Assembly: GCA_001004665.1 (NCBI GenBank)
Contig: LCRO01000003.1
Coordinates: 63,984-127,983, forward strand
Direction: 5' to 3'
From: Candidatus Adlerbacteria bacterium GW2011_GWA1_54_10
Lineage (GTDB): Bacteria; Patescibacteriota; Minisyncoccia; Phycocordibacterales; SBAW01
Length of the DNA: 64,000 nt
This document shows, one piece after another, positions 16,933-47,392 of the stretch. A program made the position numbers and the translations under genes. The stretch's first letter is position 1; each line of letters opens with the position of its first letter. The notes below the pieces were generated by a model. That model was not told where the DNA came from and made no database searches. It saw nothing but the letters and a program-made list of their open reading frames with translations.

Positions 16933-19071
16933 TCACAGCCTCCGAAGTTCATCCCACCATACCGCGTCGCCCAGGTCGGTCCTGGATACGTTGGCGTCAA
17001 GACGTATGGTGTCGATGGGAATTCCGTTTTGGATATTGTCGTTGACTTTGGTGCTAAACCACGAACAGGAAACCGGATCCGTCCGGTCCGTGAGCAGGCA
17101 AAACTCTTTAAGGCCGGCCGGTCCTTCCCTCCAGAATATCGCGTACTGGTGCCACGCGTCGTCATCGGGTATGTCGTCCAATATATGCACATACTCTCCG
17201 TTCTCAGAAGGTCCATAGCTGATGAACATGTCGGGTATCGCCGTTCTAAAACCGATGTGTCTGCGGCCGCGTATGGTAAAACCGCCCTCGAGTACCGGCG
17301 TGCCGGTCTTCGCGATTACATTAAATCCGGTTTGCGCTTTTATACAGGCATTCGAGTAACAATTTTCGGAAGTCGTTGCATATCGCGTGTTTATCTCGCT
17401 CCAGCCAAGCGAATTAAAGTTGTCGAAAGAGTCTTCGAACGGAGCGTCATGGAATTCGGTTGTCAGAGCGGGCGTAGATGTCGCTTGTGATGATGGGTCA
17501 GTCGAAGTTGCGGTCGAGGTAGCGGCGGCATCTGTTTGCGAAGTGCTTGTTGCGGTTGCCGTCTCCTGCGTGCTTGTCGCAACTTCCGGCGTACTGGTGG
17601 CGGTATCAGGAGTGCTTGTAGCCTCCTCCTCGGCAGCCACCGCGGCCTGCTCCTCCTGCGCCGGAGGAGGCGGCACGTGCAATGCGCCGCCGGTGCTGGG
17701 CGAGGATTGCGGAGGAGGTGGGGGCTCCGGCGGAGGCGGGGTCATCTCGGGAAAGGGCGTCGGATTCGGTATTGGCTCGATTGAAGTTTCTTCAACTTCC
17801 GGTGTCGCGGACGCGGGCGACTCTTCAAGAGGCGTCTGCGGCGCTTCGGACTCCTCGCCCGCGACAATGCCGGGTTCTTCGATTTTTTGAGGCGCCGTGT
17901 CTCGCGCGATTTGCGGCGGGACAGTAACAGGCGTAGGTTCCGGTTCGAGCGCGGGAGCAGTTGCGACCGAGGCGCCAAGAAGCTCGTCATATTCTTCCTG
18001 ATTCAGGCTCGAGCCGTAGAGCTTCTTAACAACCTTAAAGCTCTTGCTCGCCGTTTCTTTAAAATCCAGTTCCGCCTGGCTGACGTTCTTCGCCTTCAGT
18101 TTTCCGGCCTGCCTTTCTTTTTCCGCTTCTTTGAAAAACAGATCGATTACCCCAACCCCGCTTTCGATCGCGCGTTTTGATAACACGCGCCAGTAATCAG
18201 ATGCCACAGAGTCATTTTCATCATCAAATTTTATTTCAATTTCTTTAATAAATTCTCCGGCTTTTTTATTAATTCGTACTTCTGCACGAGCAACTTTGTG
18301 TCCGAATCTGGAATATACAAATCCATTTTTTATATCCAAACTATCCAATATAGGAGAAGAGTAATTTTTAAACAGAGTATCTTTACTCAAAAAATTTTTG
18401 TTCGTAAACTCCGCGGTAAAATCAAACGCTTCGGAAAGACCAATAAAGTTTGGGGTTTGTAGATTGTTTGGAACGGCGACTTGGCTAAATTGACCCGTAA
18501 AATTCTCGTAGGGGTCCGCGTCACCGTAGCCATTGTGGTTAAGATGCGGATCGTTGCGCACATGCGCCGGCACCGTCGCGTCCTGCAGTAAATGCAAAAT
18601 ATGCCCCAGCGTTTCTGCGGCGCGCGCTTTGTCGCCATAAACATATTCATATACGGCCCTGTCCCACGAGTAGTCGGTGGGCGAGCTAAACCATTTGTCA
18701 TTATAGCCAACATGCGTGCCAAAGCAGATAATGGTGCCCCAGCAGTTGTAATTCCCCTGCGCCTCGGTATCCCGCGCCCACTGCTTTGACGACTCGAATT
18801 CTCCTCTCCAAACAGTCAATCCACGATTATTTACCGGGTCGTAGAAGTGGTTTGTCGGGCGTGAGCCAAAATCCTCTCCCGAGCTCCCGCGAACAATTTC
18901 CCTATCGAACATCGAGACAAAAGTTCCGCTGTGCAATTGCCCGTATGCCTCAACGGTCGCCCGCGCAAGCGCCTCGTGCGTATTTGTCTCGTATGCCCAT
19001 GCAAAAAACGGGGACATAATCCCCGCTAACAAAATCAAACTTTTCAAAATCAAAGCTCGAGTATTTTCCAT
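16933..19071 (-). CDS. Secreted zinc-dependent phospholipase C-like (S1-P1 nuclease-fold) protein with Pro/Thr/Ser/Glu-rich linker and C-terminal lectin-like domain
   Basis: Signal-peptide-like N-terminus; HFYDP and LGHILHLLQDATVPAH motifs match Zn-PLC (PF00882-like) signatures; ~160-aa low-complexity linker (PPPEPPPPPQSS, TST repeats). Confidence 0.6.
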   Translation of the reverse strand: MENTRALILKSLILLAGIMSPFFAWAYETNTHEALARATVEAYGQLHSGTFVSMFDREIVRGSSGEDFGSRPTNHFYDPVNNRGLTVWRGEFESSKQWARDTEAQGNYNCWGTIICFGTHVGYNDKWFSSPTDYSWDRAVYEYVYGDKARAAETLGHILHLLQDATVPAHVRNDPHLNHNGYGDADPYENFTGQFSQVAVPNNLQTPNFIGLSEAFDFTAEFTNKNFLSKDTLFKNYSSPILDSLDIKNGFVYSRFGHKVARAEVRINKKAGEFIKEIEIKFDDENDSVASDYWRVLSKRAIESGVGVIDLFFKEAEKERQAGKLKAKNVSQAELDFKETASKSFKVVKKLYGSSLNQEEYDELLGASVATAPALEPEPTPVTVPPQIARDTAPQKIEEPGIVAGEESEAPQTPLEESPASATPEVEETSIEPIPNPTPFPEMTPPPPEPPPPPQSSPSTGGALHVPPPPAQEEQAAVAAEEEATSTPDTATSTPEVATSTQETATATSTSQTDAAATSTATSTDPSSQATSTPALTTEFHDAPFEDSFDNFNSLGWSEINTRYATTSENCYSNACIKAQTGFNVIAKTGTPVLEGGFTIRGRRHIGFRTAIPDMFISYGPSENGEYVHILDDIPDDDAWHQYAIFWREGPAGLKEFCLLTDRTDPVSCSWFSTKVNDNIQNGIPIDTIRLDANVSRTDLGDAVWWDELRRL

Positions 19072-19580
19072 TTGTTAGTAAATGGATTTTTGGTCAGGCG
19101 AACTCCAAAGGCTGTATTTTCGTTTTGAGGAAAAACTTCTATTTCATAAATACCGGACGAACCAACTCCAGATGGAGGAACTAATCTCCCATTATGATAG
19201 GCATTAATAAAGAACTGATTTGAACCTAATTTTAATTCTTTTAAATTTTCCTCTTGCTTCTCCACCACAAAATACTTCGACGCCAAAACAAAATCCTCCT
19301 TCTCCAACGCCTCTACAAACAATCGCAAAGTTTCCTCCGGCGTAGCGCCGCCGTAGGCGTCGGCGCGGTAGGCAGCTTCAAGGTTCCCGGACTCGGCTTC
19401 CATCCTCTGCCATTCCTCCCGCGCAAGAATATTTTGCATGCGCACCACGGCTTGGTCGCCAACCCACTCGAGATAATTTCTCGTAAAAATGGTCCCTATG
19501 ATAAGGACAAGAACCCCGATCCAAAACTCCCACCGCTTGAATATCAGCTTCCTCTCCCCTTCCGGCAATGAGTCATTCAT
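19050..19580 (-). CDS. Hypothetical membrane-anchored protein
   Basis: 176 aa; one N-terminal TM helix; no recognisable motifs. Confidence 0.4.
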   Translation of the reverse strand: MNDSLPEGERKLIFKRWEFWIGVLVLIIGTIFTRNYLEWVGDQAVVRMQNILAREEWQRMEAESGNLEAAYRADAYGGATPEETLRLFVEALEKEDFVLASKYFVVEKQEENLKELKLGSNQFFINAYHNGRLVPPSGVGSSGIYEIEVFPQNENTAFGVRLTKNPFTNKWKILEL

Positions 19581-19620: not shown

Positions 19621-19643
19621 TGCGAAGGTCAGACCTTCGCAAA
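19621..19643. repeat. 23-nt perfect palindrome (copy 1, overlaps transposase stop codon)
   Basis: ttgcgaaggtcagaccttcgcaa; 11-bp perfect arms. Confidence 0.9.
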
Positions 19644-20312
19644 CCGTTCTCCTGTATAAGATTTTAACAATTCTTCAAGATCATTTTGAGTCCTAAGGAA
19701 ATCTGGGGCTTGGTCAGAAGAAAGGACTGCGCCTTCCGGTCGATTACCCGAGATGTAGTCATAGAAACTTGAGTAGCGGTAAGAATGCAGGAAATTTCTC
19801 GCCGTATTTCCATCCGTTATACCTATTTTTTCCCAATCTGGAAAAACCAACGAAAGAGGATTGAGATGTACATAAGCAAATATGTAACGGAAATAGGGCT
19901 CGTCGTCTACATGTCTACTTTTAAATGCTCCTTGTGCAATAATACCGCTGTGTTTGTGGAGAATATTGAAATACATCGAGTAGCCGGTGAAAACCTTTCG
20001 GGTAAATTTTGATATCCCACACTCTTTTTTCTCGCGTAAAACTAGATGGAAGTGATTAGGCATTAAACAATATGCGAATATATCCACAAGTGATTTGTCT
20101 GGTTTTTCCTCTTTGAAAATAACCGCGGAATCAAAGCCTTCGTACTTTCTTAATGTCTCACGGACATCTACTCTACAATCGCTGTTTGATAAGTGGAGAA
20201 GCAAAAGAAAACGCTTATAATCCGAATCGGTTGTGAAAATGGATTGTTTATGGGCACCTCTATTATAGAGATGATACATTTCTCCAACTGCAAAGGGAGC
20301 ATCTTTTCTCAT
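19629..20312 (-). CDS. HUH Y1 transposase (IS200-like / REP-associated tyrosine transposase-like)
   Basis: 227 aa; HUH motif CLMPNHFHLV and downstream Tyr-containing helix (RYIFAYVHLNP) typical of Transposase_17 (PF01797-like) proteins. Confidence 0.7.
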   Translation of the reverse strand: MRKDAPFAVGEMYHLYNRGAHKQSIFTTDSDYKRFLLLLHLSNSDCRVDVRETLRKYEGFDSAVIFKEEKPDKSLVDIFAYCLMPNHFHLVLREKKECGISKFTRKVFTGYSMYFNILHKHSGIIAQGAFKSRHVDDEPYFRYIFAYVHLNPLSLVFPDWEKIGITDGNTARNFLHSYRYSSFYDYISGNRPEGAVLSSDQAPDFLRTQNDLEELLKSYTGERFAKV

Positions 20313-21031: not shown

Positions 21032-22141
21032 TTATTGCATCCCGTTTACTATTGTGCGGGTCTTGGGGCCGAAGTAGCCGGCCGCCGGAGAGATATTATT
21101 AGTCTTTTGGAATTTGACGAGCGCGGCGCGAGTCAAGCCGCCGAATCTGCTTGTCTCGTTGCCGGACGAACCAGGGCCGCTCGCCGCCACCTCGTAGCCG
21201 TGAGTATTCAGGAACACCTGCAGGGCCTTGACGTCGTCGCCTGTCATTCCGATTTCCAGATCGCGAGTGAACGCTCCAAATACTACCGTCGCGCTGGGAG
21301 TGGTGGACGGTGCCGCGCTCGCGGCAGGGACCAAAACGTCGCCGTTAAGCGCCGCGCGCGTCTTGGGGCCAACGTAGCCGGTCTGCGATATGCCCATGCT
21401 CTTTTGATACGCCCGAACCGCCACGCGCGTGAGTCCGCCGAAATATCCCTTGGCAATGCCGGACGGTATCGTCAGAAATCCTTTATTCTCAAGAAATGTT
21501 TGCAGAGCCACAACGGCATCATTTTCCGCTCCGATTCCGAAATCCTCCGAAAACGCTATCCCCGCGGTTGCCGGTGCAGAAGTTTGCGTCGAAGTTTGCG
21601 TGCCTGTTTGCGTCGTCGCCGAGGTGGAAGGGGTTGTCTGCGTAGTGCTGGTGGTCGTGGTCGTAGTGCTTGTCGTAGTTTGCGTGGTTGCAATCGGACC
21701 GCCCCCGCCGCCGCCTCCACCGCCGCTGCTGCTACTGCTGCTGCCTCCGCCGCTTGGACCGGCGCTCGGACACGCGGTGGTATTTGGAGTTACGGTAACG
21801 GTTGTTGTGCCATCTACAGAAGAAATCGATGTGAGCGAGGTCCCTCCGCTCTCGCATGTCGTAGCGGCCGAGTAGCCGGAAGTGGTTGCCGTAGAAACGC
21901 CGGTCAGATATCCGTTTGCGCTCCGCGCATCAAACGAGGATGACGGCGCGACCGCGACGTTGAAACTGTTTGTATCAACTAGAAGAGACTCGACGGAAGA
22001 TGAGGCGACGGACGTGAACGAAACGCTGTTCGACGATATCGTAACGTCCGCGCCTATTGTCACGTCGTTATACGTCGCGAGCGCAACCGCCGGCAGAAGA
22101 AGCGCAATGGCTCCCAAGAGTATTCCCAGTATTTTTTTCAT
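21032..22141 (-). CDS. Secreted protein: signal peptide, Ser/Thr/Gly-rich region, two C-terminal peptidoglycan-binding (PG_binding_1-like) repeats
   Basis: MKKILGILLGAIALLLPAVALA signal; poly-Gly/Thr tract; two copies of DVKALQVFLN..GY.....GYFGPKTR.AL..FQ. Confidence 0.7.
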   Translation of the reverse strand: MKKILGILLGAIALLLPAVALATYNDVTIGADVTISSNSVSFTSVASSSVESLLVDTNSFNVAVAPSSSFDARSANGYLTGVSTATTSGYSAATTCESGGTSLTSISSVDGTTTVTVTPNTTACPSAGPSGGGSSSSSSGGGGGGGGGPIATTQTTTSTTTTTTSTTQTTPSTSATTQTGTQTSTQTSAPATAGIAFSEDFGIGAENDAVVALQTFLENKGFLTIPSGIAKGYFGGLTRVAVRAYQKSMGISQTGYVGPKTRAALNGDVLVPAASAAPSTTPSATVVFGAFTRDLEIGMTGDDVKALQVFLNTHGYEVAASGPGSSGNETSRFGGLTRAALVKFQKTNNISPAAGYFGPKTRTIVNGMQ

Positions 22142-23081: not shown

Positions 23082-26000
23082 TTACTTCGAGAGCGTCTGG
23101 CCCGAGAGACCGGCGGACGGAAGGCCGGATATGCCATAGCCGTTCGTCCAGTCAAGATTGTGAGCCGTGGACGTAGTTGTGGCGTTCGGCGACCAGATGA
23201 AGTCGTCATTCCCGCCGCCGTTGCCGTCCACCGTAGCGGCCTTGGCTGTAAGCGGACCGCCTAGATGCGGATATGCCGCATCGCCGACGAGTTTCGTCGT
23301 AAGCGAGCCACTGAATGTGCCTGTGCCGGCAGTAAGTGCAACATCGAGCACTACCTTGAAGTAGTACGTCGAGCCCGCCGGGACCTGCAGGACCGACGAG
23401 AGAACCGCGCTGTTATCGCCCGCGATTATCTGGCCGTCGGTGCCGTCGAAGACGAGACCGTCGGTGTAGCCCGATACCGCCTGGCTCATCGCCGAGTCGG
23501 TGTAGGCGTAGATGTCGAGGTTCTCTACCGACGTAGTGCCGGTAACTGCGCTGTTGGCGCTGGTAGCCACATTAACGGTGAACTTGTAGAGCCCGATACC
23601 GTTCGGATTGCCAGTGTTGCTTGCAGTGACGCTGAAGCAGTGTACCGCTTGGGCCGTGCCGGTTATGAGCGTGCCAAGGCTAGAACACGCGCCACTGCTG
23701 TACTGAGCGACGGTCGGAACATCGCGGAATATGCGGATGCCCGCGCCGTCGGTGTCAGTGGCCGACCCTTGGTTTATGGTCGTGCCCGACGCCTGGCCGA
23801 TAGAGCGAGTGCCGGTCGTGTCATTGCCGTCGTACTCGACCTCAAGCAGGAGGCCGTTGGTCGTGGTTGCCTGTCCGGTGCCGATGCCCGCAAGATCGCC
23901 TTTGACTGTGATGACCTTGTAGCCGTTGGCCGGAATGGTAACCGTGCCACAACCGGTGCAGGTGCCTATCGTCGAGGTCGCGTAGCGGCTGGTGAAGATC
24001 GCTTCGCCCACCTTTGTTGCGCCGTCCCACAGCGTTACTTTGTTGATGTTGGACGGAGTCGATGTCGAGGCGCCGTTAGCCATCTCGAGGGCCACGCGGT
24101 CGAGTTTCTGGTCCTCGTTGGTGCCGTCGAAACGGATTATGTTGAGCAATGAGTTGCTCACGCCCGCGACAGCTATTGTGTAGGACGGAGCCGATGCGTC
24201 GCGGCTGACCGTGAGCGCGCCGGAACCCGCTATCGTCATCGTGTTGCCTCCGGTCGTGATGGAAGCGGCGATAGAACTGCCGGAGCCAATGCCCGTGCCC
24301 GAGATCGTGTCGCCGTCGGTAACGCCCCATGCGAACGTGTCGGAGGCCGTAGCGCTGCCCGGAATATCACATTTGATGGCGACCGTCTTGGTTGTGCCTT
24401 TTGGCACCACAAGCGCGGTATCGAATGTGAAGGTATGCGCCGCCGTAGAGGACGGGTTGACCGAAGTGTCATTGAGCCGCTGTGAGCCGTCGTAGGCCAC
24501 GCAGTTGCTGACGTCGGTTGTCATACCGTCTGTATAGCGGAACTGCGCGCTGTTGAAGCGCACATCCTCGCCGGACTGACCGGCGTCGAAGATTATGTTC
24601 GCCGCGGTGAAGCCGATTACGCCCGCGACCACGTTTTGCGCGGCCGGAGTGCCGGATACCGATGCCGTCACGCTGCCGGTCTTGACCGTCATCGTGTTCA
24701 TCGAGAAGTTCCCCTGCGTAATGCTGATGGTGTTGCCGGTGATGGCCCCCGTGCGGCCCGACCAGCCGGACGGCGTCGTCGAGGCGCTTACCGTTTGGTT
24801 GTTGGAGACCGTCGAAGGGAGCTTGCCCTTGAGCGAGAATACGTGCCTGCCGGTTGGGAAGGTCACCGAGTCGCTGAAGGTCGCGACTTGGAGTCCGCCC
24901 GAAGCAGAAGCGTCAACCGGGCCCGCAACTATTTTGCCGTTCTCATCGACGATGCTGATGCTCGTCAAGAGCTCGGAAGCGTTGCTGTCGGCGTTCGTTC
25001 CATAAGAGATGTTGAATATCATCTGCGTCATGGTAACGCCCTCGCCCTTGAAGTCTGTCACGAAACCGCCAAGAGGCTGGTTAGCGACCTGCACGGCGAT
25101 GTTCTGCGCCGGAACTTCAGCCGCTTTGCCGATGAGGTTCACCGTCGCGGCGTTGATGGTCGTTACATAGCCAGAAGTCCACGGGGTCGAGGTCGAGTGC
25201 GACATGCCGATGCCGAATCCATAGGTCTGTCCCACGAAGTAGATGTCGGTAGACTTGTCGATGTCGAAGTCGACTGTGCGGCTTGCGGAGTTCGCGCCGA
25301 CGATGTCGCCGCGGACGTGTATGTCTATCGTATTGCCCTTGGGGATCGAGATTCCGCCTGGGAATACGCTCGTGTAGTACTTGCCGGAGCTGTCAACGGT
25401 GGTCGGGTAGACCGTGCCGTCTATGAGCGTCTGAACGTTGGCCAAGTCGGAAGGACCGACCGTGCCTACCTGGCGCCACCTTAGGCTGTGGAGCTTGAGG
25501 TCCTCCGCCGAGCCTGCGGTGAAGCGCTGGCCGGTAAAGCGGACCGCCGTATCGCCGAGGTTTTTGGTCTGGGCCGCCGCCGGGTCGAAGGCGCTCGTGG
25601 TGGTCGAGATCGTGCCTATCGAGAGCGTTTCGTTGACGGTGTGGCTGGCTCCTGTGATTGGGAGAGAGCCGGATACCGCCGCCGAGGTGTTTACTGCCAC
25701 GACCGCGAGGCTTGCGACCTCGCCCGCGTGGCTGTTGGTGTCGGCTCGGTTGCCCGCGACCGTGAAGGTTTTGGACGTGCCCCTCGGGATAACAACCGTG
25801 TCGCCGATAGTGGCTTGATGGTTGCTGTTGAGAGTGCGCGCGATGCCGACTTGCGCCCCTGTCGAGGCGTCAAGCAATACAACACCGGCGAAAATCGCAT
25901 CATTTGCAGCGCCTTGGCGTTCCACCGTGATGCTGTTTATCGTCACGTCGCCGTCATTGCCCGCGGTGAGCGTGAAGTTGGTGAACGGAATGCGGTTCGC

Positions 26001-26633
26001 GTTGTCGGGAGCAAGGCCGTTCATAGGCTGGATTGCCGCCGAGACGGAAACGCCCGTGCCCGGAGTCGGAGTCGGTGTCGGTGTGGGGCTAGGGGTCGTG
26101 CCGCAGACCGCCGCGATAGCCGCGCGAGTGATAGGGCCAACGTAGCCTGCTACAGGCGCAACGTTATTTGCCGCCTGGAACTTCATGGCCGCCGCCTTCG
26201 TAATGGGCCCGAAGTAGATGCTTTCATTTCCAGGGGAACCAGCACCAGTAACGGCGAGCTGGGTCGAAGCACTTCCGTTAAGGAAGACCTGCAAGGCCTT
26301 CACATCGGCACCGCTCGAACCTTGCTGGAGGTCCCGAGAGAGCGCGGGGCATGCGCCGGCAGAGCCGCCGGTGCCCGGAGTCGCCTGGCCTTGGAGAGCC
26401 GCGGTGACGTTAGCTATCGTTGCCGAGTCCGCACCAAACGATGCGAGCAGGGAAACGATCGACTGGATCTGCGCCTGTGTGAGCGCCGCCGCTTGCGCGG
26501 GAGCGATAGCGACCGCGCCCATAAGCGCGAGCGCGACCGCGACGCCGGTCGCGAGCGCAACCAGTCTGGTCGAACTGTTGGTAATAGTCATAACCAATAA
26601 ATAAGTCGAACAAATTAACTTACTGGTAAACAA
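23082..26633 (-). CDS. Giant (~1170 aa) secreted/surface protein: signal/TM, PG_binding_1-like domain, Pro-Thr linker, long array of beta-rich repeat domains
   Basis: N-terminal hydrophobic segment; DVKALQVFLNGS...YFGPITKAAAMKFQ PG-binding motif; TPSPTPTPTPTPG linker; repetitive Thr/Ser/Gly-rich Ig-like segments. Likely start M at ~26591. Confidence 0.65.
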   Translation of the reverse strand: MFTSKLICSTYLLVMTITNSSTRLVALATGVAVALALMGAVAIAPAQAAALTQAQIQSIVSLLASFGADSATIANVTAALQGQATPGTGGSAGACPALSRDLQQGSSGADVKALQVFLNGSASTQLAVTGAGSPGNESIYFGPITKAAAMKFQAANNVAPVAGYVGPITRAAIAAVCGTTPSPTPTPTPTPGTGVSVSAAIQPMNGLAPDNANRIPFTNFTLTAGNDGDVTINSITVERQGAANDAIFAGVVLLDASTGAQVGIARTLNSNHQATIGDTVVIPRGTSKTFTVAGNRADTNSHAGEVASLAVVAVNTSAAVSGSLPITGASHTVNETLSIGTISTTTSAFDPAAAQTKNLGDTAVRFTGQRFTAGSAEDLKLHSLRWRQVGTVGPSDLANVQTLIDGTVYPTTVDSSGKYYTSVFPGGISIPKGNTIDIHVRGDIVGANSASRTVDFDIDKSTDIYFVGQTYGFGIGMSHSTSTPWTSGYVTTINAATVNLIGKAAEVPAQNIAVQVANQPLGGFVTDFKGEGVTMTQMIFNISYGTNADSNASELLTSISIVDENGKIVAGPVDASASGGLQVATFSDSVTFPTGRHVFSLKGKLPSTVSNNQTVSASTTPSGWSGRTGAITGNTISITQGNFSMNTMTVKTGSVTASVSGTPAAQNVVAGVIGFTAANIIFDAGQSGEDVRFNSAQFRYTDGMTTDVSNCVAYDGSQRLNDTSVNPSSTAAHTFTFDTALVVPKGTTKTVAIKCDIPGSATASDTFAWGVTDGDTISGTGIGSGSSIAASITTGGNTMTIAGSGALTVSRDASAPSYTIAVAGVSNSLLNIIRFDGTNEDQKLDRVALEMANGASTSTPSNINKVTLWDGATKVGEAIFTSRYATSTIGTCTGCGTVTIPANGYKVITVKGDLAGIGTGQATTTNGLLLEVEYDGNDTTGTRSIGQASGTTINQGSATDTDGAGIRIFRDVPTVAQYSSGACSSLGTLITGTAQAVHCFSVTASNTGNPNGIGLYKFTVNVATSANSAVTGTTSVENLDIYAYTDSAMSQAVSGYTDGLVFDGTDGQIIAGDNSAVLSSVLQVPAGSTYYFKVVLDVALTAGTGTFSGSLTTKLVGDAAYPHLGGPLTAKAATVDGNGGGNDDFIWSPNATTTSTAHNLDWTNGYGISGLPSAGLSGQTLSK

Positions 26634-43530: not shown

Positions 43531-44088
43531 TTACAGCCCCGTCATTTGCAGGGACTCGTTGATGGTGCGCACCAGGAGCGAGCGGGACTCAATCGCTTTG
43601 GCGGAGAGCTCGATGGAAAAGCCTCCTTCTATAAAAGGCGCGAGCGCCTGCGTATGGGGCAGATAGCCCAGAGCAAATAGTATGCGCAATACCAAAACGC
43701 ACTCGATCGCCTCGGCATGGGGCTCTTTCGTCGCTGCGAGGGCGCGCAGGCCTTCGGAAACCTCGTCGAATAACTGCGGGTTTTTTTCTTCCCCGTGCAC
43801 GAGGCGCAATAAAAGTTGTGCAATCCGGCCCGACTGCGCCGAGAGTCCGAGCGGTCGGATGCCATGCGCCTCCGTGACGCGCCACTCGTGCCTTCCGCGT
43901 ATCAGGCAAAATCGCGCAGAAGTCAGAGGCTCGAGCCCATAGCGCAGTTTTGATGCTTCCGCGCGCGCGGCGCGCGCACTCGCTACCACAAGCCCGAACT
44001 CGCGTGTCAATATCGCAACGCGCAAGTTCGCCTCTCCTACGCCGCGCTTGCGCAGGACAATTCCGTCAGTTGCCGTTTTTTCGTACAT
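43531..44088 (-). CDS. recO: DNA repair protein RecO (short)
   Basis: 185 aa; N-terminal OB-fold region (TDGIVLRKRGVGEANLRVAILTREFG), overlaps ileS 3' end by 23 nt. Confidence 0.65.
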   Translation of the reverse strand: MYEKTATDGIVLRKRGVGEANLRVAILTREFGLVVASARAARAEASKLRYGLEPLTSARFCLIRGRHEWRVTEAHGIRPLGLSAQSGRIAQLLLRLVHGEEKNPQLFDEVSEGLRALAATKEPHAEAIECVLVLRILFALGYLPHTQALAPFIEGGFSIELSAKAIESRSLLVRTINESLQMTGL

Positions 44089-47000
44089 ACTTCAAATCTT
44101 TGAGGCCGGTAAGTAGCATGATTTTATCTCGGTACTTATTCGCCACTACCATCTCTTCTTCGGTAACTGCAAGCGTGCATTCTGGCTTGTCGGCGATTTT
44201 ATATCCTTTTTCCTTGCGCCACTCCTGCACGCGGCGGACAAGCTCGCGCACGACGCCCTCCTCGCGCAACTGCGGCGTGATGAACGTATCGAGCACCGCC
44301 TCCCCATCGACTCGAGCGACTTCTTTCACGTTAAGCTCGTCGGCAAGAATCGCCCGCAGTTGCGGATTTTCCGGCAACACAGGAGCGGTAAATTTCGCGA
44401 GCGGCTGCCTGACCTTGATGCCCGCCCTCTCACGCAGCTGAAGACCCTCCGACGCCGCTTTGTGTATCTGCTCCATTTCCCTCAAAATATTCTCGTCGAT
44501 CTGCAGGGGTTCCGGCCAATCAGAAAGATGCACGCTTTCCGGATCGTTCTTGCTCTTTACGCTCCGATATAAATCCTCGGCGAAGAACGGCATAACGGGA
44601 GCCATAACGTGCGCCGCAGTATAGAGGACAAAGCGCAATGTAGAGACGGCCCGCGCATCGCCATTTTTGAACCGCTCGCGCGAGCGGCGCACGTACCACG
44701 CCGAAAGGTCGTCAATGAATTTTCCGAGTGGCCGCACCGCCGCATCCAATTCGTACTTTTCGAATCCTTCGGTCGCATCGCGCACCAGCTCGCCTAGGCG
44801 CGAGAGAATCCATTTGTCGAGTATATGCAAAGGAGAAACTTCCTGAAGAAAATGCTCTGGTTGAGGCGAAGCCGACCCGAGGACATTTTCGGAAGGAAGC
44901 TTCTCCGAAGCATACAACTTGTAAAAACTTCGGACATTGTCGATGCGCATGAGCAATTTCTTCGACACCTCGTCCACACCGCGCTCGTTAAAACGCAAGT
45001 CCTCCGCGCGCACGACGCCGGAGGAAAGAAGATAGTATCGCAGGGCGTCCGCGCCGTACTTGGCCACGACCTCCATGGGGTCGGGATAATTTTTGAGCCG
45101 CTTACTCATCTTTTGGCCGTCCGAGGCAAGCACGAGGCCATTGACTATCACTTTTTTATACGGACTCCGTCCGAAGAGCGCGACGCCGAGCACTATCAGT
45201 GAGTAAAACCACCCGCGCGTCTGGTCGAGCCCCTCGGCGATAAAGTCCGCCGGATAGCCCTTAGCCCCAAAGCGAAGAAAGCGTTCCGGGTCAAAATTCT
45301 TTTTCTCGAACGGGTAGTGATTGCTCGCGAAAGGCATCGAGCCCGACTCAAACCAGCAGTCAAACACCTCCGGCACGCGCTGCCACTGACCGTGTATGCC
45401 GTTGCCCATCGGCACCTCGTCTATGTACGGACGGTGCAGGTCGAGCTCATAGTTTTGATTATGAGGAAAGGGGACAAATGGAATTTCCTGCAACTCGGCG
45501 GTCTTAAGCATAACTTCTTCATCAAAATCAAAACTGCCGGACAACTTTCGGGCCGCGACTTTCTGAAGGATCCAGATCGGCAAGCCGTGTGAAATAATAA
45601 GAATGTTTTTGTTCGTGTAGCGCCGCTCCGCCTCAAACAAAAACTCACCCATACGCCTGCGCACTGCCAAAATATCGGATTCATTGAGCTCGTGCAGGCG
45701 CTTGTCAATCATCACCGCAGAATCCGGAAGCCCCAGCTCCTTTTGCACTACCGCCGCCGTCTCGCGCGTGCGCAAAAACGGAGAGACGATAATAAGATCG
45801 ACATTCTCGTGCTTGAGTTCCGAAGCAGCCCGCACAGATTCTGCTTTCCCAGTTTCGGTCAAATGATTTTCCGGGTCGCCGCGCGGGTCGGGTACGTTGT
45901 TCGCATTGTTCACTGCCTCCCCGTGCCGCATCACAAAGTAGCGGTTGCCGGAGCGGCGGACCATAGAAAGCAGTTCCTCTATCGAGCCGATGATCTTTAT
46001 CTCTTTAGTTTTGGAGTGTCGCCATACGGGAAGCGGCGCGCCCCAATAGCGGCTGCGCGATATAGCCCAGTCCGGCGCGCTCTCTATTCCCTTGTGGAAG
46101 CGACCCTTGCCGACATTCTCCGGCACCCATGCGATTTTCGCGTTCTCCTTGAGTAGCTTGTTTTTTAAAGCCGACACTTTTACGAACCACGAGCTGGCCG
46201 CAGAGTTGAGTAGCGGCGTGTCGCATCGCCAGCAGTGCGGGTAGGAGTGCGTTGTTTTTTCTTTCTTGAAGAGCAATCCTTTTTGTTCGAGGAGCGCCGC
46301 GACCTTCTCGTCCGTTTCGCGCGGACTCCCCTTCGGCTTTACGGGCAGGCCCGCAAGATCTTTTACCGCAAGCACGAATTTTCCCTCCTCGGTTATATGC
46401 CTTATAAGCGGAACCTTCTCCCTTTGCCCGAGTGCAAGGTCATCCGCGCCGAATGCCGGAGCGATGTGCACGATGCCCGTACCCTCGCCGAGCGACACAA
46501 AGTCGGCGCCATACACGCGCCATATTTTATTATTTTTGGAGAATTCGCCTGCGAAATAGTCGAACGGCGGCAAATATTTTTTGCCGATAAGCTCTTTACC
46601 TTTATATTCCGCAACAACTGATTTTTCCGGAGCAAGTTCTCTTGCAACAATAATGAACTCGTTTCCAGTTTTTACTTTCACATATATAGCGCTCGGATTG
46701 ACTGCCACAGCGGCATTGCCCGGAAGCGTCCATGCGGTCGTGGTCCAGATCAACAAAGAGGTACTGGGATCGTCCGCCAATTGGAATTTTACCGTAACGG
46801 CCAAATCCTCGATATCTTTGTATCCCTGCGCGACCTCGAAGTTGGACAGCGTCGTGCCGCAACGCGGACAATAGTGCATCGCCTTGAAGCCCTCGTAAAT
46901 TAATCCGCGGCCGTGAAGATATTTGAATGCCCACCATACCGACTCGGTGTAGGAGGTGTCCATTGTCTTGTAGGAGTTCTCCATGTCGGCAAAGCGGCCC

Positions 47001-47392
47001 ACGCGCGGAATGGCCCCGCGCCACTCCATTTCGTCCTTCATGATATGGGCACGCGCCGCCTCGTTGAACGAGGCCAGGCCGTACTCCTCAATGTCGCGCT
47101 TCTGCCTGAACCCGAGCTCTTTTTCCACCAAATTCTCGACCGGAAGCCCGTGGCAGTCCCATCCCCACCGCCTTTGTACGCGCCAGCCGCGCATCGTGCG
47201 ATAGCGCGGAATGGCGTCTTTTATGGTCGATGCCAAAATGTGCCCGTAGTGCGGGGATCCACTGGCGAAGGGCGGCCCGTCATAGAACACATACTCGCCG
47301 CGCGGCGACTTTTTATCCAGCGACTTCTCGAAAATCTTTTCCTTGTTCCAAAATTCGAGTATTTCCTCCTCCCGCTTCGGCAGATCCGACAT
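44066..47392 (-). CDS. ileS: Isoleucyl-tRNA synthetase with an embedded histidine-phosphatase-like domain
   Basis: 1108 aa; PHYGH (HIGH), CP1 editing domain, KMSKR. Residues ~483-640 carry RHGE...SHG histidine-phosphatase motifs. Confidence 0.9.
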   Translation of the reverse strand: MSDLPKREEEILEFWNKEKIFEKSLDKKSPRGEYVFYDGPPFASGSPHYGHILASTIKDAIPRYRTMRGWRVQRRWGWDCHGLPVENLVEKELGFRQKRDIEEYGLASFNEAARAHIMKDEMEWRGAIPRVGRFADMENSYKTMDTSYTESVWWAFKYLHGRGLIYEGFKAMHYCPRCGTTLSNFEVAQGYKDIEDLAVTVKFQLADDPSTSLLIWTTTAWTLPGNAAVAVNPSAIYVKVKTGNEFIIVARELAPEKSVVAEYKGKELIGKKYLPPFDYFAGEFSKNNKIWRVYGADFVSLGEGTGIVHIAPAFGADDLALGQREKVPLIRHITEEGKFVLAVKDLAGLPVKPKGSPRETDEKVAALLEQKGLLFKKEKTTHSYPHCWRCDTPLLNSAASSWFVKVSALKNKLLKENAKIAWVPENVGKGRFHKGIESAPDWAISRSRYWGAPLPVWRHSKTKEIKIIGSIEELLSMVRRSGNRYFVMRHGEAVNNANNVPDPRGDPENHLTETGKAESVRAASELKHENVDLIIVSPFLRTRETAAVVQKELGLPDSAVMIDKRLHELNESDILAVRRRMGEFLFEAERRYTNKNILIISHGLPIWILQKVAARKLSGSFDFDEEVMLKTAELQEIPFVPFPHNQNYELDLHRPYIDEVPMGNGIHGQWQRVPEVFDCWFESGSMPFASNHYPFEKKNFDPERFLRFGAKGYPADFIAEGLDQTRGWFYSLIVLGVALFGRSPYKKVIVNGLVLASDGQKMSKRLKNYPDPMEVVAKYGADALRYYLLSSGVVRAEDLRFNERGVDEVSKKLLMRIDNVRSFYKLYASEKLPSENVLGSASPQPEHFLQEVSPLHILDKWILSRLGELVRDATEGFEKYELDAAVRPLGKFIDDLSAWYVRRSRERFKNGDARAVSTLRFVLYTAAHVMAPVMPFFAEDLYRSVKSKNDPESVHLSDWPEPLQIDENILREMEQIHKAASEGLQLRERAGIKVRQPLAKFTAPVLPENPQLRAILADELNVKEVARVDGEAVLDTFITPQLREEGVVRELVRRVQEWRKEKGYKIADKPECTLAVTEEEMVVANKYRDKIMLLTGLKDLKYVRKNGN

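Follow-up and report, generated by a model that had tools for sequence, protein, structure and literature searches.

The described enzymes closest to the system considered here are the phosphatidylcholine-preferring phospholipase C (PLC) of Bacillus cereus (PDB 1ah7; Pfam PF00882) and Listeria monocytogenes PlcB (8cqm), to which can be added the alpha-toxins of Clostridium perfringens (1ca1) and C. absonum (1olp), which carry a C-terminal PLAT/C2-like beta-sandwich on a short linker, and the S1/P1 nucleases (1ak0, 5fb9; PF02265). In both PLC and P1 nuclease, Trp1 acts as a zinc ligand. Here we analyze a gene of the ultra-small Patescibacteria (Candidate Phyla Radiation, CPR), located in a 64,000-nucleotide stretch of Candidatus Adlerbacteria bacterium GW2011_GWA1_54_10 (contig LCRO01000003.1, positions 63,984–127,983; referred to hereafter as the window). 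We consider it very probable that the product of this gene is a secreted and catalytically active multi-zinc phosphodiesterase belonging to the PLC lineage, working together with the product of the gene directly upstream.

The window enzyme is only 18–20% identical to B. cereus PLC and PlcB, and differs from them in having an N-terminal Tyr rather than Trp as its putative ligand, in lacking both a propeptide and His142, and in possessing additional invariant residues (Glu66, Arg71, His157, Arg172, and His176). To the shared core it adds a beta-hairpin, a Cys-loop, a junction motif, a stalk, and a C-terminal module, and it has an upstream gene for an NTF2-like partner. Where the alpha-toxins carry their beta-sandwich, the window protein instead has an unrelated Cys-rich module on a Pro/Thr stalk of ~165 residues; sequence-family kinship with the S1/P1 nucleases is undetectable beyond a 20-residue motif. 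Both fold and chemistry belong to an enzyme kind already known, and as a fold assignment this is ordinary. What appears to be new is a divergent, unannotated, CPR-wide PLC subfamily with a modified ligand set; an NTF2-like partner gene, almost always co-encoded, with a conserved 22-nucleotide overlap; and two uncharacterised accessory elements (the Cys-rich module and an "LYGSS" junction) common to several classes of secreted hydrolase.

The catalytic domain belongs to the zinc-PLC lineage

The open reading frame (ORF) runs from ATG to stop on the minus strand and fills 16933–19071 exactly, encoding 712 residues. We regard the gene as real because an orthologue (P0001, 71% identical) shares both its architecture and its gene neighbourhood, and because 37 relatives of the N-terminal domain and 46 cluster representatives of the C-terminal domain were found; plus-strand ORFs that overlap the enzyme gene are without support. 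Translation locates all of the motifs quoted in an earlier, sequence-only reading (HFYDP at residue 75, LGHILHLLQDATVPAH at 155, PPPPEPPPPPQSS at 445, and TATSTP at 490), and the tetrapeptide ATST is present seven times.

A Pfam scan of the full-length protein returned no family at an expectation value (E) ≤10, NCBIfam holds no model for the enzyme family, and NCBI records label its proteins "hypothetical protein". Kinship with PLC is clear because the family profile, the relatives' Pfam matches, the fold search, and hhalign all agree. The profile, built from 38 sequences, matches B. cereus PLC and Listeria PlcB in the PDB (E 0.0015–0.004) with both motif blocks in register, and PF00882 is touched by 16 of 38 relatives (best 1.4e-7). 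An AlphaFold2 model of the N-terminal domain, derived from the family alignment (predicted local distance difference test, pLDDT, 87.5; predicted template modeling score, pTM, 0.82), is a helical fold superposable on that of B. cereus PLC; when this model was submitted to Foldseek, only zinc PLCs reached a probability of 1.00, with nucleases at E >2. Finally, hhalign (using PLC and P1 nuclease references verified against the PDB) gave 93% and E 3.4e-7 for PLC, and 6.5% for P1 nuclease over the 20-residue motif.

The sequence-only reading had assigned the N-terminal region to a fold shared by zinc-dependent PLC and S1/P1 nuclease; the PLC half of that assignment stands, whereas the S1/P1 nuclease assignment is rejected at family level on the hhalign result (6.5% over 20 columns) and the complete absence of PF02265 matches for the window protein or any of 38 relatives; Foldseek scores to these nucleases are non-significant. 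The catalytic part had also been drawn too short at ~230 residues; in the model the folded region reaches approximately residue 325 (~300 residues), and includes two insertions specific to the family, a loop bearing Cys110/Cys116 and a beta-hairpin (residues 246–281). Two further sets of matches were discarded, those of single sequences to NCBIfam (compositional, to the linker) and those to HIV gp41 (phmmer against the PDB, E ≥0.04, attributed to chance).

A modified but intact-looking putative metal site

The PLC ligand set used for comparison comprises Trp1 (N and O), His14, Asp55, His69, His118, Asp122, His128, His142, and Glu146. Six of these (Asp55, His69, His118, Asp122, His128, Glu146) are paired by hhalign with Asp67, His75, His160, Asp164, His170, and Glu189 of the window protein, and His32 aligns with His14 in the profile match to the PDB. 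These seven aligned zinc-ligand positions are invariant in the family (83 reference-genome sequences), as are Tyr27, Glu66, Arg71, Asp78, His157, Arg172, and His176, with His157 (inside the LGHILHLLQDATVPAH motif) an additional His specific to the family. The predicted trinuclear-zinc phosphodiesterase site is modified yet intact-looking across a family found in hundreds of species; His176, which aligns with PLC Asn134, is a candidate that would probably stand in for the lost His142.

Export would generate the remaining ligand. The signal-like segment noted earlier has a charged n-region, a hydrophobic core (Kyte–Doolittle hydropathy ~2), and A-W-A preceding Tyr27. Among 82 homologues the −1 residue is Ala, Gly, or Ser in 81, the −3 residue is Val, Ala, Ser, Thr, or Ile, and the +1 residue is Tyr in every case. 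Because Tyr27 lies directly after a site conforming to the signal peptidase I rule, it should form the mature N-terminus and, by analogy, should take the zinc-ligand role of PLC Trp1. The six Cys of the protein form three close pairs (110/116, 571/576, 658/669), as would be expected of an exported protein.

Features of the enzyme–partner locus (window coordinates)
Feature	Coordinates	Strand	Description	Basis
Whole ORF	16933..19071	-	Secreted zinc PLC-like modular protein, 712 aa + stop	Orthologue P0001, 71% identity
Signal peptide	18994..19071	-	aa 1-26 (MENTRALILKSLILLAGIMSPFFAWA); predicted signal peptidase I cut before Tyr27	Hydropathy and homologue comparison
Catalytic domain	18088..18993	-	aa 27-328; zinc-PLC fold, largely helical, with insertions particular to the family	
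HFYDP motif	18835..18849	-	aa 75-79; His75 corresponds to PLC zinc ligand His69 of B. cereus by alignment	
LGHILHLLQDATVPAH motif	18562..18609	-	aa 155-170; His160/Asp164/His170 align with PLC His118/Asp122/His128	
Junction element	17956..18087	-	aa 329-372 (KNVSQAELDFKETASKSFKVVKKLYGSSLNQEEYDELLGASVAT); conserved helical LYGSS motif between enzyme and linker	
Linker (stalk)	17455..17955	-	aa 373-539; low-complexity Pro/Thr/Ala/Glu/Ser	Composition
C-terminal domain	16936..17454	-	aa 540-712; Cys-rich, unannotated mobile module	
Partner gene	19050..19580	-	176 aa; N-terminal transmembrane helix and extracytoplasmic NTF2-like (DUF4878-like) domain	
Partner stop/enzyme start overlap	19050..19071	-	22 nucleotides (ATGGAAAATACTCGAGCTTTGA)	Sequence read

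A translationally coupled partner with a predicted membrane anchor

At 79 of 82 enzyme loci a homologue of the partner gene lies directly upstream on the same strand, and contig ends truncate two of the three loci that lack it. The sole complete locus without a partner (L077:3974-8431) encodes a PLC-like protein of 1485 residues that also bears a staphylococcal nuclease domain, two LTDs, and a PQQ-type beta-propeller. The overlap between partner stop and enzyme start is exactly 22 nucleotides at 63 of the 79 loci, which implies translational coupling; in the window, the partner frame (...AAA TGG AAA ATA CTC GAG CTT TGA, ...KWKILEL*) is read again in the +1 frame as the enzyme start (ATG GAA AAT ACT CGA GCT TTG A, MENTRAL...). 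The unit is accordingly a coupled gene pair and not a lone enzyme.

A transmembrane (TM) segment is present in 70 of 74 partners, and the difference in net charge across it (+2.4 ahead of the helix, +0.2 behind) predicts an N-in/C-out topology. The domain placed outward by this topology carries an invariant D-x-YGG-x-TPEET motif in the alignment of homologues, and the partner profile retrieves NTF2 proteins from the PDB at E 0.004–0.06. In size and in the pattern of its opening helix ("TPEETL.LF..AL..GD...A.KYF") the partner resembles the small lipoproteins and membrane proteins of DUF4878 (PF12870); this family is matched weakly by 17 of 26 homologues (best E 6e-4, all matches sub-threshold), with the window partner itself unmatched. 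To our knowledge, neither an N-terminal TM anchor nor strict coupling to a PLC-like enzyme has been described for DUF4878.

Junction, stalk, and C-terminal module

The junction element, modeled as two helices (residues 332–352 and 358–364), follows the consensus "NF.[VI][VL]K.LYGSS[LV]...[DE]..[DE]L.G..G[GS]A[VA]" and always sits just ahead of a low-complexity linker. Among 37 PLC-like relatives, 14 have a loose form of the motif, as do 24 of the 45 proteins that combine the C-terminal domain with other N-terminal domains; the strict form is confined to such genes across 628 kb of CPR loci. Proteins with the consensus (P0042, P0044, P0047, P0056, and P0066 among them) include PLC-like enzymes and hydrolases with unrelated N-terminal domains. 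The element has no Pfam match, and could serve as a processing, docking, or sorting signal.

The linker that follows is composed of 19% Pro, 17% Thr, 15% Ala, 13% Glu, and 11% Ser, in keeping with the Pro/Thr-type linker of ~160 residues first proposed (these five residue types make up 75% of residues 386–545); a tandem repeat at the DNA level was considered and rejected, there being no notable repeat and the bias being compositional.

The separate C-terminal domain that had been anticipated at ~170 residues proved genuine (173 residues). It is defined by the signature DxFDxF..GW ... WHQYxxxWRxG ... DLGDxxWxDEL and the Cys pairs 571/576 and 658/669, and an exhaustive search of 1.84 billion representatives identified 46 proteins carrying it at E ≤1e-3, where word-indexed searches (with the single sequence or a 31-row profile) recovered only a 98-residue fragment identical to the query. 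Trp and Cys residues are invariant in the 31-row alignment. Neither member by member nor as a profile does the domain match Pfam or the PDB, and among the 31 sequences there is no match to ConA-like/LamG Pfam families at E ≤10; its motif pattern (DxFD..W ... WHxY..W..G ... DLGD..W.DEL) is LamG-like by eye only. Matches of the profile to GtgE in the PDB (E 0.02–0.04, over half of the domain) were rejected as chance, and an AlphaFold2 model from a 3-row alignment (pLDDT 40.6) was too low in confidence to use. The beta-rich, lectin-like character first proposed for the domain is thus neither favoured nor contradicted.

The domain occurs at either end of proteins, in company with LCAT/PGAP1-type alpha/beta-hydrolases, M10/M43/M23 peptidases, or Ig-like arrays, and from this variety of partner domains and positions we conclude that it acts as an accessory module, mobile among secreted hydrolases. 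One such protein (L003:4001-6997, 998 residues) begins with the Cys-rich module and continues with LCAT-like and DUF7379 hydrolase domains and then an MBG domain; its gene, on a 502-kb contig, adjoins PrgI/TraC/TraG-type (type IV secretion-like) genes. Among the 82 PLC-like loci, the C-terminal domain is present only in the closest relative of the window protein, other members of the enzyme family (often 1,200–1,400 residues) bearing LTD, beta-helix, PKD, or Ig-like modules instead.

Distribution and genomic context

When one genome per species was scanned, at least 340 genomes proved to encode an enzyme relative. Of the 80 loci kept, 77 either name a Patescibacteria lineage (Nomura-, Sung-, Kaiser-, Niyogi-, Harrison-, Vogel-, and Lloyd-bacteria, and others) or name no taxon. 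One locus labelled "uncultured Gammaproteobacteria" (L020, CAZHEJ010000029.1) has the same partner–enzyme cassette, its overlap identical to that seen in Patescibacteria, and is probably a mis-binned or mislabelled CPR contig. In a metagenome-assembled genome of UBA2100 Patescibacteria, the PLC-like gene (L013:4001-5749) has an in-frame stop at codon 290, which may reflect a pseudogene, an assembly error, or recoding.

Synteny between the window and a complete 688-kb Candidatus Kaiserbacteria genome extends over six genes (small protein, enzyme, rplJ, rplL, a protein of 193–220 residues, and a mechanosensitive-channel-like protein), which makes the reduced genome assumed by the sequence-only reading a reasonable inference. 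We rejected rplJ/rplL as a functional link; unlike the partner gene, they are a lineage-specific neighbour, present at 15 of 82 loci. Between a TPR gene and the cassette, the window has a 227-residue IS200-like Y1 transposase-family ORF (19629-20312, minus strand; PF01797, 23.6 bits). The closest relative (L001) has the order TPR, partner, enzyme without this ORF, which looks like a lineage-specific insertion. Two neighbouring minus-strand genes encode surface proteins with PG_binding_1 domains: one of 369 residues with a Gly/Ser/Thr-rich low-complexity linker (21032-22141), and one of 1183 residues (23082-26633) with a similarly placed counterpart of 1109 residues in the Kaiserbacteria genome (L002). 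Elsewhere in the window, a 1108-residue isoleucyl-tRNA-synthetase-like protein (44066-47392, minus strand) contains a PF00300 histidine-phosphatase stretch (residues 486–570, E 5.5e-19), an unusual insertion that splits the class I synthetase domain into two halves.

Proposed mechanism and competing explanations

Our full reading, to which we give an even chance, is that of a two-gene cassette of Parcubacteria-type Patescibacteria, in which an exported zinc enzyme cleaves the phospholipid of a neighbour or host. The upstream gene would give a single-pass membrane protein with its NTF2-like domain facing outward, the 22-nucleotide overlap causing both products to be made together. The enzyme would be exported by its Sec signal peptide, and cleavage after A-W-A would free the invariant Tyr27 as N-terminus, whose amino and carbonyl groups could then complete the trinuclear zinc site (by analogy with Trp1 of B. 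cereus PLC) alongside His32, Asp67, His75, His160, Asp164, His170, Glu189, and probably His176 in place of the missing His142. This site is expected to hydrolyze a phosphodiester, likeliest the glycerol-phosphate bond of neighbour or host membrane phospholipids, with diacylglycerol and a phospho-head group as products. The ~165-residue stalk, together with the LYGSS junction, would keep the Cys-rich module apart from the catalytic domain; this module probably directs or fastens the enzyme to some ligand of the cell envelope, a role it would share with its copies in other secreted hydrolases, and the partner may serve as an anchor, as a restraint, or as acceptor of the hydrophobic product.

A phospholipid substrate is favoured because the enzyme is of the PLC and not the nuclease lineage, because the C-terminal module keeps lipase-type companions, and because NTF2-like proteins, the type that the partner resembles, often bind hydrophobic ligands. 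The lipid dependence of CPR bacteria (PMC7242380, PMC8080830, PMC11665869) argues in the same direction. Several observations weigh against this reading. Checked as a single sequence against PF00882, the N-terminal 395 residues score 13.1 bits (E 0.091), below the gathering threshold of 26.8 bits; PLC His142 aligns with the non-conserved Ala185, which leaves one zinc site presumptive. Nor are the PLC residues of the choline site conserved (hhalign places Phe66 opposite Pro72 and Tyr56 opposite Phe68, with Glu4 in an N-terminal segment left unaligned), and with this change, and with further His, Glu, and Arg residues invariant here, substrate specificity is not transferable from PLC. The spacing of Tyr27 to His32 (5 residues, compared with 13 in PLC) suggests a shorter N-terminal segment, Arg71 and Arg172 would suit a polyanionic substrate equally well, and the LTD modules on most longer family members, with the staphylococcal nuclease domain on one, hint at nucleic acids.

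One rival explanation has the same fold and metal site acting on nucleic acid or nucleotides, as a secreted zinc nuclease or 3'-nucleotidase that scavenges nucleotides (which CPR bacteria cannot synthesise) and whose C-terminal modules bind extracellular DNA or debris. It gains support from the fusions to LTD and SNase domains, from an N-terminal spacing like that of P1, and from the additional arginines; we judge it unlikely, though the most serious competitor. A housekeeping envelope enzyme, held at the producer's surface by the partner and using that cell's phosphodiester-linked polymers or lipids as substrate (in teichoic or lipoteichoic acid turnover, for example, or in removing head groups from scavenged lipids to provide diacylglycerol for glycolipids), would fit the core-gene-like spread over at least 340 species genomes, the adjacency to rplJ–rplL in several lineages, the peptidoglycan-binding surface proteins encoded by flanking genes, and the tight translational coupling to a membrane-anchored protein, which suits retention at that surface. 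The long stalk and the C-terminal regions, which vary greatly and resemble adhesins (LTD, beta-helix, PKD, Ig-like), look instead outward-reaching and target-binding, and we regard this explanation as distinctly improbable. Loss of the His142 equivalent and the score below the Pfam threshold could also be taken to indicate a structural or adhesive protein that has lost catalysis and kept no more than a PLC-like fold; 16 polar or aromatic residues clustered on ligand positions are, however, invariant in 82–83 sequences of diverse lineages, and since this ligand set fits an active metal site under purifying selection, we give a dead enzyme hardly any credence.

Implications for Patescibacteria

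Patescibacteria account for a large share of bacterial diversity and cannot make their own lipids. According to a recent review, no mechanism of lipid uptake or breakdown has been identified in CPR (PMC11665869). Speculatively, and at rather long odds, the cassette could be the device, missing until now, by which Parcubacteria acquire lipids: at the contact zone the stalked enzyme would strip the phospholipids of a host or neighbour of their head groups, and a co-translated NTF2-like cone on the CPR membrane would capture diacylglycerol (or lysolipid) and feed it to the epibiont membrane. The cassette offers a concrete, conserved two-protein target for understanding how CPR cells process foreign membrane lipids or nucleic acids, and with it a handle on the unsolved matter of how Patescibacteria acquire or process lipids.
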